From positions 928,001 to 992,000 of the forward strand of contig CAWCLO010000004.1 of assembly GCA_963796455.1 (NCBI GenBank): 64,000 nucleotides of DNA. The letters run 5' to 3'. Below, in pieces: positions 1,432-54,923 of this stretch. The stretch is from Candidatus Sulfomarinibacteraceae bacterium (lineage in GTDB: Bacteria; Acidobacteriota; Thermoanaerobaculia; Thermoanaerobaculales; Sulfomarinibacteraceae). The notes beneath the pieces are model-generated. The model saw nothing but the letters and a program-made list of their open reading frames with translations, did not search any database and was not told the DNA's origin. The position numbers were made by a program, and so were the translations under genes. How positions within the stretch are numbered: position 1 is the first letter of the stretch; the number at the start of each line of letters is the position of its first letter.

Positions 1432-1806
<375 letters not shown>

Positions 1807-1948
1807 TTTAACACCGCCTGCCAAGTGGGAGGGTTGTCTTGACTGCGCAGAGGAGCAGAGGATAGGAGAGCAGGGGAGAGGGTGATGGAACGCACACTGG
1901 TTCGGGATTGATGGCCACCGGTGTCCGATCCGATGTAATGTTGAAAGC

Positions 1949-34873: not shown

Positions 34874-36139
34874 GTGACTCCAAAGATCCTGCCAGGACCG
34901 AAGACCGAACTTCGCGGTTCGGTAAAACTTCCGCCATCGAAGAGCCTGACCAACCGCGCGCTGATTGCCGCCGCCGTCGCGGACGGCGGTATCATCACAT
35001 CGCCGCTGGATTGCGACGACACAAGGGTTCTTGTTGCTGCGCTCTCCGCTGCCGGTTGGTCGATCGATTGGAGCGATACCATCGAGGTCGGGGGACGCAC
35101 GGTCCCAGAGGGTCAAGTGCATCTCGACCTCGGCGACTCCGGAACCGGCGCGCGTCTGATCCTCGGTCTGCTGGCTGCGAGCCCCGGACGGTTCATCGTC
35201 GATGGCAGTGCGCGATTACGGCAACGGCCGATGGCTCCGGTGATAGATACGCTGCAGCGCCTGGGTGCCCAGCTCAGTTCAACTGACGGCAAATTGCCCA
35301 TCGAAATCGACGGCGTTGAACTCGATGGCGGCGGAGCCACCGTGAAACCGGAGGTCTCGTCGCAGTTTGTGAGCTCCCTGGTGCTGGCTGCGCCGCTGAT
35401 GAAAAGAGGTCTTGATCTCCAGGTCGTGGGTGATCTGCCCTCGGCGCCATATCTGGATCTGACCGAAGAAGTCCTGACCGCATTTGGTGGCGGTGTCATC
35501 GTCGACAATGATCGACGGTGGTGGCGAGTCGCTCCCGGTCCCCTTCGTCTCGCACTCTATGATGTGGAGGGAGACTGGTCTGCTGCCTCCTTCGCCCTGG
35601 CTGCTGCGGCGGTGGCGGGTGGGCAGGTGGAAATGGGGCCCCTCGAGCCTGCCAGTCGTCAAGGTGATCGTGGGATCCTCGAGATTCTCTCGCGAGCGGG
35701 GCTCGAGTTCGAGTGGCGCGAAAGATATGTCGCGGCGCGCGGACCCATCACTTCGCCAATCAAGGCCGACCTCCGCGACATGCCGGACCTCTTCCCGGCG
35801 TTGATGGTAGTCGCCGCCTGCGCGCCACCGGGATCGCGTCTCTCGGGTCTTGAAAACCTGCAACACAAAGAGAGTGACAGACTGACCGTCATGGTCCGAA
35901 ACCTCGGCAGGCTTGGGGCGGGAATCACGGTTCGGGAAACCGAAATTGAGGTCCATACCTGCATCCGACCGACCCCTGGGCCGTCGCCAAAGGTTACCGC
36001 CGCCGGAGATCACCGGGTGGCCATGGCCATGGCGGTTGCCGCCCTCGCCGTAGGTCCCCTTGAAATCGACGATGCGGATTGTGTCAGCAAATCCTTCCCG
36101 GGTTTCTGGCAAACGTGGGATGGTCTGGTGGGCGCTTGA
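34874..36139 (+). CDS. aroA: 3-phosphoshikimate 1-carboxyvinyltransferase
   Basis: SKSLTNR, SGT..R, RPM, SSQF, DWS, KESDR, DHR, KSFP. Confidence 0.95.
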   Translation: MTPKILPGPKTELRGSVKLPPSKSLTNRALIAAAVADGGIITSPLDCDDTRVLVAALSAAGWSIDWSDTIEVGGRTVPEGQVHLDLGDSGTGARLILGLLAASPGRFIVDGSARLRQRPMAPVIDTLQRLGAQLSSTDGKLPIEIDGVELDGGGATVKPEVSSQFVSSLVLAAPLMKRGLDLQVVGDLPSAPYLDLTEEVLTAFGGGVIVDNDRRWWRVAPGPLRLALYDVEGDWSAASFALAAAAVAGGQVEMGPLEPASRQGDRGILEILSRAGLEFEWRERYVAARGPITSPIKADLRDMPDLFPALMVVAACAPPGSRLSGLENLQHKESDRLTVMVRNLGRLGAGITVRETEIEVHTCIRPTPGPSPKVTAAGDHRVAMAMAVAALAVGPLEIDDADCVSKSFPGFWQTWDGLVGA

Positions 36140-36252: not shown

Positions 36253-39200
36253 ATGAGATTCCCGACCCCGGCGGCATTGCTTATCGAACATCCAGCGGTG
36301 CCGGTTCCGGGGATCGAGGCCCACGCGACGGAATCCGAACCTGTCGGCGAAGTGGTCGACCGGAAAACCCTGACCCGTAGCGATCGATATCAACTGGCCG
36401 CGCAACTGACGGCGGCCGTTTCATTGCTGGCGGAATTCGATCTTTGGCCCGGACGGACCGCCATCAAGTCTGCGCGGATATGGCGATCATCGGATGGAAT
36501 CGGCACAACCTTGTCCCGTTTCCCCGTGCCGTTATCGCAGGTCTTCACCCGTCTCGGCAGCGGCCAGACCGCGGCCGAGACGACCCGGCGGGCTGTCATG
36601 GAGGCCGTCTCCTGCGCGGTGGGCCTGCCGATTTCTGCGATCGACGTGGATCGCGATGAACCCGGTTTTTTTCTGGAAGGGGCGATTGTTCGGCAGCTTC
36701 GCGAGTTGCCGACGCCCCTCGACCGGGTAACGGCCCGAAGTCTGTGGGCTCTTCGCTGGGATGGTCTGCCCGCGCCCGAGCCCGGCGTCGCGAGTTACTG
36801 GCACGTATCCGATGAGGACCTGGCCCGCAGGTATGCGTCCGCCCTGTGGGCCACCCTCGGCCGCAAGGGGAGGGAAGCCTGGATGTGGCCGGCCGGGAGA
36901 GAGGATTTGGGAACGGCTCCGTCTCCGGCTCTCGGAGGCAAAGGTGTATTGATCGTCGTTGGATCCATCTCATCGGACGAATTGGCCGCGATTTCGAGAT
37001 GGGCGCAACGTCCCGGATGCTCCGCCGTGGCGGTCGGTTCATTTCCTCGAGGTTGGTACCCACCCGAACCGCCGGGAATCGACGACGGGTCCTTGTCCCG
37101 CCACCTGGCGGTCACGGGCACCACCCCGGACCGGTCGCGCAAGGTCATCGATCAACGGGCCGGTCGTTTCGATCCCTTGGATCGCCGGGATCGCGAGGCG
37201 CTGACGCGCTTGGCGAGATATCGGTTCAAGGATCCGCCGCTGATTGAAATCGGTGCCCGCGCCCGTTCGGCCGCCGAGCGGCTGGAAGAGATGCTCCACC
37301 TGGTGCCGGAAGGGCTGCCGCCGGGATTCGTTGCGGTCCACAGCGGTTTATCCGCGGGTGAGATCGATGACGCCCTGAAAGACCTCGCGGTGATCGAGAC
37401 CCTGGACCGGTGGCGGCTGCCGGATGTCCGGCCTCTCGAACCCGGTGCCGCCCATCTCGAGATCGCCGGTCTCTTCGAATCAGGCGATCCGCGGCGCCGT
37501 CTTCACAGCGCTCTGGGGAGCGGCGATGCAACAGAACTCGTCAAATGGTCGCGTCGCCAGCTCGATGTTTTGGATGGACGATCGGTTCGCGACCTTTTGG
37601 CGCCGGTTGCCCCCGGTTGTCTGGGGCCGGTTGTCCAGTCCCTCATGGCGGAAGCGTGTCTCTCGATCCTCGATCTCACTGGCGCACGAGCGGCGATCGG
37701 GATCATGAACGGGCCGCGGAGACGTGTGCTTGAGCGTTGGTTTGCATGTCTTGATGAAGCCCCATCATCTCATCACGAGATGCCCTCGGACGAGGAGCTG
37801 GAGATCGAGCCGAGGGTCGCCGCCGAGGTTGCGATCAGGGTACTCGCTCAGTCCGTTCATGGACGGGGAGGCGACCTGAAGGCGGTGCGGAATTGCATCG
37901 ATGGTCTGCTGCCCCGTTTGTCGGAGGCTCTCCGCGGCAGGATCGAAATCGAGCGTACATTCATCGACGATCCGGCTCGATTCAAGGACCGGGAGTGGCG
38001 CCGCCGGGTCGCGGCCGGACATCCGGTGCTGCGGGCACTGGTTATCCATCGTTTCGCATACCTTCTGGCGGACGCGGAGCCACACAAGGCCCGTCGGTTG
38101 TTTCGAAATCTGCGGGGCGATGAAATCGGACCGGGTCTTTCCGCCGTTCTGGAGCTGGATATCGGGATGACAGAAATCGTGGGCGGCGAATCCAGAATCG
38201 CGGAGGTCCATCAACTGAGGGCCTATCGTCTCCTTCAGGCGGCCGGCTTCCAGCATGCCACCAGGGCTGTTCTTTTCAATCTCGCTGTGACCGATCTCGA
38301 TCAGCTCAGGGTCGGGCGGGCGTCGGACCGATTGTCAGCGCTGGCCGAGGACGAGCCGGAGAGCCCGTATCTGCTTGGTGAAATGTGCCGGCTGGCATTG
38401 GCGCTCGGCGATGAGTCGGAGTTTCGCCGGAGCTTGTCGTTAATGACCGCTGATGTTTCGGCTGACCTGCCTCCGTTTGCCGAGGGTGTGGCCTTTCTGC
38501 GCGGGGTCTCTTTGCTCCTCGACGGGGATCTTGCTTCGGCTCGTCGCGAACTCGCGCGTGGCGGTCAAGAGGGAGGGGTGTGGCTCGAACTGGTCCACGG
38601 TCTGTCCGGAAGGGTTGCAGAACCCCAAACCACCGATGGTTGGGGCGTGACTCTTGCCGCTGCATGGTTGGGGCGGGGCCTTCCCTCGTTTGAAAAAACG
38701 ACGATGTCCGACCAGGAAGGCTTCGCGCTTGCGCTGGTTGATCGATTGGCGGGCACAACGATGGAGATCGAGCCCACCGCGCGGGCGCTTGCCGTCAGGG
38801 TATTGGATTCGCTCGGTATTCACGGCTGGGCGGAACAACTCCGCGGCAGTTTTGGTGGCAGCGTGGTACCGGCGCTTGCAAAGATCGTCGAGAGGGGGTC
38901 CTTTGAGGGCATCGGCGAGGACAATCTGGCCGGCCTCCTCCAGGCTCTCGGGCTCACGGGTCTCGAAATCATTGACACCCGTGAGGGTCGACAGATTTGG
39001 AGGATCGGTACGGGCGCGGCGGGAAGCGAGGTCCGTCACGGCCGAATCTCCCTGGTCCCCCTCGGCGGAGAGGCGTCGGGTGAACCGGCCTGGATTCTGG
39101 TCAAAACCCTGTTTGAGCTCTTTGCGCCGCCTTCGGTGGATCACCAGGATCCTTCGGTCGAAAAGACGGGTTTTGTCGGGTCCTCACCCCCTGCCGTACT

Positions 39201-40092
39201 GGTGCGCCGGCAACTTCTCGAACTCGGGCCGAGCCATCTGCCGATTCTCATCCTTGGTGAAACTGGAGTCGGCAAAGAGGTTGCCGCGAAAGCTCTGCAT
39301 CGATTGTCCGGGCGGGATGGCGCACTGGTCGCGGTCGATATGAACGCCATCCCGGCGAATCTCCTCGAAGCCGAACTCTTTGGTTCCCTCAAAGGGGCGT
39401 TTACCGGGGCCGATCGTGCGCGACGCGGACTGGTGATGGCAGCTGACGGCGGAACCCTTTTCCTCGACGAAATCGGCGATCTCGACCCACTGCTGCAGGT
39501 CAAGCTTCTGCGCTTTCTCGAGTCCAAGGAGGTCCGGCCGGTGGGTTCAGATCATGCAACGAAGGTGGATGTTCGGATCGTCGCCGCCACCCATCGTGAT
39601 CTGAAGCAGAGGATTCGGGAAAACGTCTTCCGGAGTGATCTTTTTTATCGACTCGCCATCACCGAGATCAAGATCCCACCTTTGCGCGAACGCCATACGG
39701 ACATTCCTGCACTGACGGAACACTTTGAGAGCTTGGCTGTCGCGCGTCATGGGCTTTTGTCGGCGCGATGGAGCGCGGAGGCGATGAAATTGCTGCAACG
39801 ATACCGCTGGCCCGGCAACGTTCGCGAGTTCCGCCAAACCATCGAGGTTGCACTCGTGCGGGCGGCCGGCGGGCCCGTGCGCGCGGAACACCTTCCGATA
39901 GAAAACTTCGAAGAAATGGAATCGAAACCCTGGGACGTTGCCCAACGGGAGTTCAGAGCCCGTTTTCTCGAAGCCGCGCTCCGCCGCAACAACGGCAACC
40001 GCAGCGCGACCGCGCGCGAACTGGGAATCTCGCGGCAAGCCCTGCTCTATCATCTGAGAAACCTGGGCCTCACACATATCCTTAAAAACTGA
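36253..40092 (+). CDS. sigma-54-dependent enhancer-binding protein with a ~950-aa uncharacterised N-terminal region
   Basis: GETGVGKE, intact GAFTGA, LFLDEIG, WPGNVRE, Fis-type HTH. Confidence 0.9.
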   Translation: MRFPTPAALLIEHPAVPVPGIEAHATESEPVGEVVDRKTLTRSDRYQLAAQLTAAVSLLAEFDLWPGRTAIKSARIWRSSDGIGTTLSRFPVPLSQVFTRLGSGQTAAETTRRAVMEAVSCAVGLPISAIDVDRDEPGFFLEGAIVRQLRELPTPLDRVTARSLWALRWDGLPAPEPGVASYWHVSDEDLARRYASALWATLGRKGREAWMWPAGREDLGTAPSPALGGKGVLIVVGSISSDELAAISRWAQRPGCSAVAVGSFPRGWYPPEPPGIDDGSLSRHLAVTGTTPDRSRKVIDQRAGRFDPLDRRDREALTRLARYRFKDPPLIEIGARARSAAERLEEMLHLVPEGLPPGFVAVHSGLSAGEIDDALKDLAVIETLDRWRLPDVRPLEPGAAHLEIAGLFESGDPRRRLHSALGSGDATELVKWSRRQLDVLDGRSVRDLLAPVAPGCLGPVVQSLMAEACLSILDLTGARAAIGIMNGPRRRVLERWFACLDEAPSSHHEMPSDEELEIEPRVAAEVAIRVLAQSVHGRGGDLKAVRNCIDGLLPRLSEALRGRIEIERTFIDDPARFKDREWRRRVAAGHPVLRALVIHRFAYLLADAEPHKARRLFRNLRGDEIGPGLSAVLELDIGMTEIVGGESRIAEVHQLRAYRLLQAAGFQHATRAVLFNLAVTDLDQLRVGRASDRLSALAEDEPESPYLLGEMCRLALALGDESEFRRSLSLMTADVSADLPPFAEGVAFLRGVSLLLDGDLASARRELARGGQEGGVWLELVHGLSGRVAEPQTTDGWGVTLAAAWLGRGLPSFEKTTMSDQEGFALALVDRLAGTTMEIEPTARALAVRVLDSLGIHGWAEQLRGSFGGSVVPALAKIVERGSFEGIGEDNLAGLLQALGLTGLEIIDTREGRQIWRIGTGAAGSEVRHGRISLVPLGGEASGEPAWILVKTLFELFAPPSVDHQDPSVEKTGFVGSSPPAVLVRRQLLELGPSHLPILILGETGVGKEVAAKALHRLSGRDGALVAVDMNAIPANLLEAELFGSLKGAFTGADRARRGLVMAADGGTLFLDEIGDLDPLLQVKLLRFLESKEVRPVGSDHATKVDVRIVAATHRDLKQRIRENVFRSDLFYRLAITEIKIPPLRERHTDIPALTEHFESLAVARHGLLSARWSAEAMKLLQRYRWPGNVREFRQTIEVALVRAAGGPVRAEHLPIENFEEMESKPWDVAQREFRARFLEAALRRNNGNRSATARELGISRQALLYHLRNLGLTHILKN

Positions 40093-40127: not shown

Positions 40128-40153
40128 AAAAAAGAGCGGGCCGTCAGGCCCGC
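40128..40153 (-). terminator. intrinsic terminator on the minus strand
   Basis: GCGGGCC-TGAC-GGCCCGC followed by TCTTTTTT on the minus strand. Confidence 0.85.
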
Positions 40154-40206
40154 AGGAGGAAGGAGGAGGTATGATGTCGTGTACCAGGTCGTTGTGTGCC
40201 CGGCAC
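40128..40206 (-). ncRNA. candidate sigma-54-dependent small RNA with anti-SD tract
   Basis: Bounded by a -24/-12 promoter and an intrinsic terminator; contains ACCUCCUCCUUCCUCCU; no AUG. Confidence 0.65.
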
Positions 40207-40216
40207 TCAGTTTATA

Positions 40217-40232
40217 AGCAAACGGTGTGCCA
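40217..40232 (-). promoter_or_regulatory. sigma-54 (-24/-12) promoter
   Basis: Minus strand reads TGGCACACCGTTTGCT, matching TGGCAC-N5-TTGCW. Confidence 0.8.
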
Positions 40233-40255: not shown

Positions 40256-41191
40256 TTGGTTCAGATCGGATCTACGCTCCTCAAACAACACCTTCGGAGT
40301 CTCCGCGAAGACGGAGAACCGGAGGTCCACGAGCGTGTGGACCTGCGAGCCTGGACCGCCTTGGGCGTTGGTGGTCTGGCCGACCTTTTGATCCGATGTC
40401 GTAGTGCTGACGGGCTTCAGCGGGCGATCGACCTGCTCGCCGCGCACGGCCAGCGTTGGTTGGTTCTCGGCGCCGGAAGCCGTCTGGTACCACCGCCTGA
40501 GGGTTTGCGGGTGCCGATCGTGAATCTGAGCGGAAATCTCGCCCTCTGGGAGCTTGACCTCGATGGTGCGGTGGCTGGAGGGGGTGCCAACCTGGCACAG
40601 GTGTCCCGTGCTGCGACACGGACCGGTTTGCCCAGCTTGGCCGGGTTGATGAAGACGGGCGATTCGGTGGGTGGTGTGATCCATGCCGCCGGGAGCGGAA
40701 GATTCTCCCTCGCGGGTCTGCTCGATTGGGTTGATCTCGCGCGACCTGGCGCGCCTGCAGAAAGGCTGCTGATCAGGGACCGGGGGATCTCGTTGAGCGA
40801 TCATGAGCTCGATCTCGACCGCCGGGTCGTGATCCGGGCCCGCCTCCAGCTTGCGGCTGACAACCAGGCCACGGCACCTCAAGACCTTGCTTCCGCGGCC
40901 GGCCAACGTCTGCCGCGGCAGCCGCGGTCCACCGCGCCTGCATTTGTCGCGGCGAAGGGGAAAAGCATCGAAAACGTGCTCTCCGACGCCGAGTGCACCG
41001 GGATGACTGCCGGTGGGGCTCGTTTGTCGAAGCGGTTTCCAAATCGGATCTGTACTTCGAGGGCCTCGCGTTCCACCGACGTCGCGGCGCTGACGCGAAA
41101 GGTGATTCAGGCGGTCACGGAACGAACCGGCGAGGCGATCACCTCGGCCCTGTGTTTCGTTGATGACGAGGGTCGGGAAATCGATCCGTGA
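40256..41191 (+). CDS. MurB-like FAD-binding protein with degenerate motifs; start uncertain (40196 or 40256)
   Basis: 'WTALGVGGLAD', 'LGAGSRL', 'VGG', 'QPRST', 'GGARLS' follow the MurB motif order. Confidence 0.7.
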   Translation: MVQIGSTLLKQHLRSLREDGEPEVHERVDLRAWTALGVGGLADLLIRCRSADGLQRAIDLLAAHGQRWLVLGAGSRLVPPPEGLRVPIVNLSGNLALWELDLDGAVAGGGANLAQVSRAATRTGLPSLAGLMKTGDSVGGVIHAAGSGRFSLAGLLDWVDLARPGAPAERLLIRDRGISLSDHELDLDRRVVIRARLQLAADNQATAPQDLASAAGQRLPRQPRSTAPAFVAAKGKSIENVLSDAECTGMTAGGARLSKRFPNRICTSRASRSTDVAALTRKVIQAVTERTGEAITSALCFVDDEGREIDP

Positions 41192-54638: not shown

Positions 54639-54923
54639 ATGACTATGACCAAGGCGGATCTCGTAGAAACGGTCGCTGAAGCAGCCGACGTGCCGCGCAA
54701 GCAAGCGGATGAAGTCGTACAGGTGATACTCGAGAGCATCATCACGGCTCTGAGGCGCAACGAGAAGGTCGAACTCCGGGGATTCGGTTCGTTCCGGATC
54801 CGGCAGCGTGGCGAGCGCACCGGGCGCAACCCCAAGACCGGTGAGCAGGTGCATGTTCCGCCAAAGAAGATCCCCTATTTCAAACCAGGCAAACACCTCA
54901 GAGAAGAGCTGCTGCAGCAGTGA
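54639..54923 (+). CDS. ihfB: integration host factor beta / HU-family protein
   Basis: MTKADL, ELRGFGSF, GRNPKTG, FKPGK; follows rpsA. Confidence 0.85.
   Translation: MTMTKADLVETVAEAADVPRKQADEVVQVILESIITALRRNEKVELRGFGSFRIRQRGERTGRNPKTGEQVHVPPKKIPYFKPGKHLREELLQQ

Follow-up and report, generated by a model that had tools for sequence, protein, structure and literature searches.

Does the short interval between a gene for a giant sigma-54 activator and a MurB-like gene encode a regulatory RNA and, if so, what drives this RNA and on which messages does it act? The locus lies in the window (the whole 64,000-nt stretch of DNA that was analyzed), and the initial annotation had read it as a sigma-54-driven small RNA that masks Shine-Dalgarno (SD) sequences, an interpretation that our analysis supported. 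The reading that we prefer, with reasonable though far from complete confidence, is that the conserved unit yields a sigma-54-dependent, trans-acting small RNA, probably driven by the activator and predicted to mask extended SD regions, with the mRNA of an IHF/HU-family gene as the best-conserved predicted target. The features on which the argument turns are the following.

34874..36139, plus strand: aroA (EPSP synthase), upstream of the activator gene in the conserved gene order.
36253..40092, plus strand: sigma-54 enhancer-binding protein of 1279 aa, candidate activator, convergent with the RNA.
40128..40206, minus strand: predicted 79-nt small RNA, from its fold, homology bounds, and single copy.
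40128..40153, minus strand: intrinsic terminator, 7 G-C pairs and a U run (the scan gives a stem at 40153-40136).
40154..40180, minus strand: CU-rich unpaired linker, predicted pairing seed, with the core ACCUCCUCCUU at 40170-40160.
40181..40206, minus strand: 5′ hairpin, from pairing and two-sided changes in a 41-sequence alignment.
40217..40232, minus strand: sigma-54-type −24/−12 promoter, TGGCAC-N5-TTGCT.
40256..41191, plus strand: MurB-like gene with an uncertain start codon, lying divergent to the RNA promoter.

The sigma-54 consensus claimed at 40232-40217 of the minus strand (TGGCAC-N5-TTGCT) was present, and promoter geometry would place +1 at approximately 40206. The 79 nt from 40206 to 40128 read as had been described, with no AUG, and the layout of hairpin, CU tract, and terminator was recovered: 9 pairs form the 5′ hairpin, 27 nt of linker stay open, and a GC hairpin of 7 pairs precedes the U run. 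The fold (−28.7 kcal/mol, z = −4.16) was equalled by none of 200 shuffles, the linker bases were computed to be unpaired with p > 0.9, and the linker core closely resembled the 16S 3′ end of the same genome. The combined pattern of promoter, CU tract, and T-run occurred at one site in the 64-kb window and in none of 100 shuffles, although the pattern was derived from the same locus and this control is weak. No paralogue of the RNA above E 1 was found in its own genome, in which the RNA is single-copy, and rpoN was present approximately 32 kb from the RNA gene.

Comparison with related genomes by BLASTN and covariance analysis bore out the claim in that promoter, CU tract, and terminator were jointly conserved. 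With the intergenic DNA as query, 22 of the 24 congeneric genomes gave matches (E = 4e-17 or better) in which homology began at the terminator end or a few bases from it; the two congeners with no match were 65% and 85% complete. Weak matches in the sister family represented the same element. The promoter lay 62-70 nt ahead of the CU core in all 30 genomes fetched from these matches. Among 29 aligned homologues, the TGGCA and TTGC promoter boxes were invariant and the bases between and after them differed. The core ACCUCCUCCUU was invariant in 29/29 of these rows, which had been picked by core presence, and ACCUCCUCCUUC was invariant with variable spacers in the 29 copies, the rows having been selected for carrying core and promoter.

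Covariation and the covariance model were based on a 41-sequence alignment built without structure information. Paired cells made up 95.6% of this alignment (≤40% in slid controls), and two-sided changes were found in 6 of the 15 pairs; 33 such changes were observed vs. 8.2 in shuffles, a test that is inflated by the kinship of the sequences. Pairing was 93.4% in the 5′ hairpin (two-sided changes in 3/7 pairs) and 97.6% in the terminator (3/8 pairs). The 5′ hairpin was strongly divergent in sequence between genera, and only 36 of 77 isolated 5′ segments were better than nearly all of 50 shuffles. RNAalifold missed this hairpin in a two-family MAFFT alignment because the two hairpin forms were misaligned across families; single folds and a one-family alignment recovered it. 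A further structure-supporting alignment agreed with the fold, but had been fitted to the model.

The covariance model detected the RNA in 18 of 19 genomes of the window's family (f1) and in 14 of 16 genomes of the sister family (f2), all of them kin, so that the counts are not independent. Outside both families, it gave four weak matches among 114 genomes of 15 other families, a set in which one genome (G044) counted only as denominator. Records bearing the same RNA were mostly labelled Thermoanaerobaculia, Ca. Sulfomarinibacteraceae, or Thermoanaerobaculaceae. Within a single acidobacterial order, the RNA family is almost ubiquitous. Judged from sequence, the gene-like unit is very probably a real transcribed RNA. 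Paralogue-like RNAs with a hairpin, CU core, and terminator, and with no sigma-54 consensus, were observed at L187:2047-2143 (G155), L188:1995-2092 (G075), and L183:3051-3150 (G073), which suggests versions under another sigma factor.

The same DNA can also be read from the plus strand, with AAGGAGG as a ribosome-binding site and translation of an upstream ORF or a small peptide from 40171 or 40174. Of 94 distinct pattern-matched copies, four of which are probably unrelated RNAs, 73 did have an ATG 7 nt after AAGGAGG, a textbook spacing, yet 12 had no ATG at the site, the ORFs ran from 4 to 338 codons with frameshifts, and the orientation of both promoter and terminator is that of minus-strand transcription. 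The peptide, which the initial annotation had named among the observations that would overturn it, was therefore not conserved, and a functional plus strand is hardly credible. No conserved ORF was present on either strand of the RNA gene, the RNA having no AUG and the antisense ORF being variable. The conserved CAU is better read as putatively pairing with the AUG codons of targets, as it does in the predicted duplexes.

Rfam gave no match to the RNA at the gathering score or at E up to 10. Within the window, only RNase P reached its gathering score (class A RNase P RNA, 1435-1807, plus strand), and three chance matches were found around the locus at E up to 10. A description of the RNA was not found in the literature, although catalogues of RNA motifs that exist solely as supplementary files may include it. 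The family is thus new and uncatalogued in Rfam, and the kind of RNA is already known.

In its predicted control, the RNA resembles Qrr1 and Pxr (PMC8043402, PMC5568312). According to the passages drawn on here, Pxr of Myxococcus and its relatives is a small RNA with a predicted sigma-54 promoter beside the sigma-54 activator gene nla19 (PMC5568312), and it binds near the SD sequences of several mRNAs (10.1101/2025.09.11.675593). The window RNA likewise combines a predicted sigma-54 promoter with an adjacent sigma-54 activator gene. Pxr differs in lying downstream of a response-regulator activator, in its length of approximately 108 nt, in its three stem-loops, and in being processed, whereas the window RNA has two hairpins and stands tail to tail with the activator. 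Identity with the Pxr family of Rfam was rejected, given two hairpins rather than three and no match up to E 10. Qrr1 and luxO of Vibrio are described as joining a sigma-54 promoter, an adjacent activator, translational repression, and feedback on their own circuit (PMC8043402). In that system qrr1 is divergent from luxO and LuxO is controlled by phosphorylation, whereas the window RNA and its activator are convergent and the activator gave no receiver-domain match; moreover, the predicted feedback point of the window RNA is the IHF/HU-family gene, not the activator.

In its build, the RNA resembles the CU-rich double-hairpin RNAs of Burkholderia (toxic sRNAs RF02278, ncS27; ncS16 RF02866; PMC5688073, PMC4603805), with which NmsR of Neisseria was grouped as a structural likeness. 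The Burkholderia RNAs are reported to have two hairpins and an unpaired CU tract predicted to lie over ribosome-binding sites, and overexpression of ncS27 slows growth (PMC5688073). The source passages on the Burkholderia RNAs and NmsR do not describe sigma-54 control. Membership in the toxic sRNA, ncS16, and suhB/MmgR families of Rfam was rejected, as the window RNA matched none of these models.

What drives the RNA? As claimed, the activator gene is convergent with it, stops at 40092, 35 nt from the RNA 3′ end (40128), and encodes GAFTGA. The protein has a sigma-54 AAA domain (PF00158, residues 976-1139) and a Fis-type HTH (HTH_8), and GAFTGA or its near variant GAYTGA was found in 19 activator orthologues. 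No Pfam domain and no receiver-domain match were found in the N-terminal 960 aa. A structural model of this front end (pLDDT 85, pTM 0.56, 17 sequences) consisted of alpha/beta domains followed by a long helical repeat (TPR-like superhelix), and it matched TPR proteins and, weakly, the STAND-TPR protein 6mfv (E = 7e-4). The N-terminal query from the own genome does not reach f2, and its blank outside the order is uninformative.

The gene order aroA, activator, RNA, and murB-like gene was common to both families. In the window's family, the activator adjoined the RNA in 17/19 genomes and did not in 2/19; in the sister family it was adjacent in 8/14 and not adjacent in 4/14, the locus ending at a contig edge in 2/14. 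The giant activator was encoded elsewhere in the genome in 5/5 of the separated cases tested. The idea of an activator-sRNA module was therefore upheld, with one reservation: the two are neighbors in most genomes, but in some they are separated, both still being present. In genus g9 (L101, L201 (G051), L162 (G151)), the RNA lies beside a shortened activator of 318-441 aa that has lost most or all of the 960-aa front and has kept GAFTGA. Since strict matches to the sigma-54 promoter number 32 in the genome, the RNA could also be driven by another activator. No activator or IHF binding site was identified by eye in the region upstream of the promoter, which is murB coding sequence. On this evidence, control by the neighboring giant activator appears more probable than control from elsewhere, with a substantial share of doubt.

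The divergent neighbor raises the possibility of control in cis. The MurB-like gene has FAD_binding_4 and MurB_C domains, scored 87.6 bits vs. the NCBIfam MurB cut-off of 259, and with this query had no match in 12 of the 35 genomes that represent the order. The gene may have degenerated from a functional copy. Readthrough from aroA and the activator gene into murB and the TPR gene would be paired by the RNA as a perfect antisense, and sigma-54 polymerase parked at the promoter would block murB transcription. Since murB homology starts approximately 20-45 nt from the −24 box, the murB leader must overlap the RNA promoter, and in 43 of 47 loci a hairpin and T-run scan of the 330 nt beyond the RNA found no terminator in the sense of the activator, both of which favor such control. 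A perfect antisense, however, would pair whatever its sequence, so that the near invariance of the CU core, and with it the seed, is left unexplained, and the RNA persists where a TPR gene or acpP-fabF replaces murB. We give control of murB in cis a small probability as the function of the RNA, and an effect on murB may be a by-product. Several genera of the sister family (L030, L190, L191, L192, L193) have no murB-like gene at this place, and acpP-fabF lies opposite the RNA promoter instead.

If the RNA acts in trans, its partner may be an mRNA or may be another RNA or a protein. The Hfq family was present in 40 of 41 genomes, and genomes across the order had two Hfq-like genes, of which one was canonical and the other divergent (L152; G000:C10:527218-527388). 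GlmY acts as a decoy. Several sigma-54 RNAs beside activators are decoys, and CrcZ sequesters Crc (PMC6296734), which would fit a sponge of the CrcZ or GlmY type that takes up an RNA-binding protein or a second RNA instead of repressing an mRNA. The loop motif ACGAC, common to both families, and the two Hfq-like genes can be counted in its favor. Against it, the RNA offers a single open tract with no repeated protein-binding motifs, the ACGAC loop is lost in several genera in which the anti-SD core remains, and csrA was not found in 5/5 genomes tested. A sponge is accordingly very unlikely, and the specific case of a CsrB/RsmZ-type CsrA sponge was rejected, given that the GGA repeats lie on the strand opposite the promoter and terminator and that csrA was not found in the same five genomes. 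GlmY/GlmZ and CrcZ differ from the window RNA in forming decoy or activating cascades rather than carrying an anti-SD seed (CrcZ: PMC6296734).

Action in trans by masking of SD sequences is, from the sequence evidence, the probable mode of the RNA. We searched for its targets by pairing the linker with the start region of each of 4035 genes of its own genome, called by a simple script that surely placed some starts wrongly. Pairing below −20 kcal/mol was found in 496 of the 4035 start regions vs. 105 coding windows, and with 120-426 for shuffled seeds. The best plain-duplex match was an 89-aa IHF/HU-family gene (G000:C1:519616, −35.0), although values of −27 to −34 were obtained with shuffled seeds for half of the genes and the top rank alone is not significant. 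An exact complement of at least 10 nt occurred in only 17 of the 4035 called genes. When mRNA self-folding was included, the IHF/HU-family gene fell to rank 102 of 4032 because a leader hairpin hides part of its site; 962 of the 4032 start regions then bound below −10 kcal/mol. The gene ranked first in that calculation was a DUF1302 gene, whose site stays at −22 to −25 in all four orthologues found in five genomes, and many of the top self-folding-ranked matches look, by eye, like exported proteins from their N-termini.

The IHF/HU-family candidate, which was chosen after the genome-wide ranking, stood out in the comparison between genomes. Of the 19 genomes of the window's family, 17 (from 8 of 10 genera) contained in this start region a 10- to 13-nt exact complement to their own RNA, the remainder of the leader diverging; in the other two, G-U took the place of an A-U pair. 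None of 476 start regions from 28 genes of the ribosomal cluster contained a complement of at least 10 nt (of 32 reference genes, 4 represented in fewer than 8 genomes had been dropped), and 1 of 19 start regions of an IHF/HU-family paralogue did. None of 20 sites of IHF/HU orthologues in 19 genomes outside the order reached even 8 nt. In f2, only 3 of 14 sites reached 10 nt, most being interrupted duplexes averaging −20.4. Covariation of RNA and target between the two families was not found, exchange of the RNAs giving −25.7 vs. −25.9 and −20.4 vs. −20.6. In f6, of the same class, a sister RNA had 5-7 nt of complement to its IHF/HU orthologue in 5/5 genomes, which is no match. Two other candidates were rejected: the 10-mer GAAGGAGGAG occurred in 0/12 ssb genes, and nuoD, with the same 11-nt site in the own genome, had lost it in 5/5 relatives.

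The candidate is a member of PF00216 and scored 86.6 bits on IHF-beta (cut-off 115) and 66.9 on HU-beta; among solved natural chains, HU proteins score above IHF subunits, so that NCBIfam leans to IHF-beta and structures lean to HU. The paralogue, a second IHF-beta-like gene, lies in the window at 54645-54917 (plus strand; 108 bits, cut-off 115), approximately 14 kb from the RNA, and its start region was mostly devoid of extended complement.

Two readings compete for the conserved site. The IHF/HU-family site was also the best partner of the 16S tail (−15.4 vs. at most −14.1 in controls), so a very strong SD is a rival explanation of its conservation. On a broader scale, the RNA could lack specific targets and damp translation in general or mimic the 16S tail, acting through weak binding to many strong SDs or through titration of a protein that reads the 16S 3′ tail. 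Such a role is consistent with a core that closely copies the 16S 3′ end of its own genome, with the many start regions that still bind after self-folding, with the same core in look-alikes from Betaproteobacteria and f6 that have unrelated hairpins, and with the lack of RNA-target covariation between families. The extended IHF/HU-family site, however, was seen solely inside the RNA-bearing order, which suggests selection on a specific pair as judged by sequence. We consider broad damping improbable, if somewhat less so than cis control; it overlaps the preferred reading and differs from it in breadth only. That the IHF/HU-family mRNA is a true target has, on the pairing data, slightly less than an even chance.

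The preferred mechanism, masking of selected SD regions, would begin with the TPR-rich front end of the activator sensing a signal, upon which its AAA domain would open the sigma-54 promoter of the RNA. Aided by Hfq at its U tail, the RNA would cover the SD of a group of mRNAs by pairing, in many cases together with the AUG, and would thereby block 30S loading. The sigma-54 promoters of glmY and crcZ are described as needing IHF in addition to an activator (GlrR, PMC3045617; CbrB, PMC6296734), so an IHF target would close a feedback loop; the source parts on GlmY/GlmZ and CrcZ do not describe repression of IHF by these RNAs (PMC3045617, PMC6296734). As covered in the part drawn on here, a 2025 review on nucleoid proteins and small RNAs has IHF controlling small RNAs, not the reverse (PMC12152304).

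A bolder extension, which we put forward tentatively and consider rather unlikely, is that the sigma-54 small RNA represses a subunit of IHF, the DNA-bending protein on which many sigma-54 promoters depend, so that one giant sensor-activator would damp the whole sigma-54 regulon and reshape the nucleoid by negative feedback, the RNA being one branch of a wider, uncatalogued class of sigma-54-driven 16S-tail mimics that extends to Betaproteobacteria. If the IHF/HU target is true, a single sensor would be linked to global sigma-54 output and nucleoid structure. Almost nothing on regulatory RNA in Thermoanaerobaculia was found in the literature. Because the family comes with a defined seed and with candidates for the activator and for a target that can be tested, all three steps could be rebuilt in E. 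coli.

The wider class was surveyed with the pattern of promoter, CU tract, and T-run in one genome per species, which gave at least 115 loci; a relaxed version missed f2, its gap being too short. At least 24 distinct loci outside the order, mostly labelled Betaproteobacteria, had the same layout; their core was UUCAUCCUCCUCCUUUGG, and their 5′ hairpin was longer and differed from that of the window RNA. These betaproteobacterial look-alikes scored 18-31 bits on the ncS16, toxic sRNA, and suhB/MmgR models vs. thresholds of 41-50 (best, 30.8 vs. 48). Among the matches listed, a cardiolipin-synthase-type gene adjoined 7 of 13 look-alikes examined, and a sigma-54 activator was present in none of those listed with 2.5-kb flanks. 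The look-alikes (L051, L053, L066, L084, L104, L111, and others) often lay between a cardiolipin-synthase-type gene and an ABC transporter.

Also among the matches listed, three loci of Desulfobacteraceae (L062, L075, L087) had a sigma-54 promoter, CU core, and terminator, with no 5′ hairpin, and faced uvrA, and three gammaproteobacterial loci (L038, L108, L147) had a sigma-54 promoter, CU core, and terminator. A second CU-rich candidate RNA in the own genome (L205:3054-3151; G000:C4 near 756100, plus strand), ended by a terminator and preceded by a sigma-70-like promoter, was rejected as not conserved, with only short terminator-like matches in 3 of 40 relatives. The f6 sister RNA was found at L184:3048-3144 (G099) and also in G089, G103, G106, and G256; at the one locus read, it sits between glucokinase and a cardiolipin-synthase-type gene.
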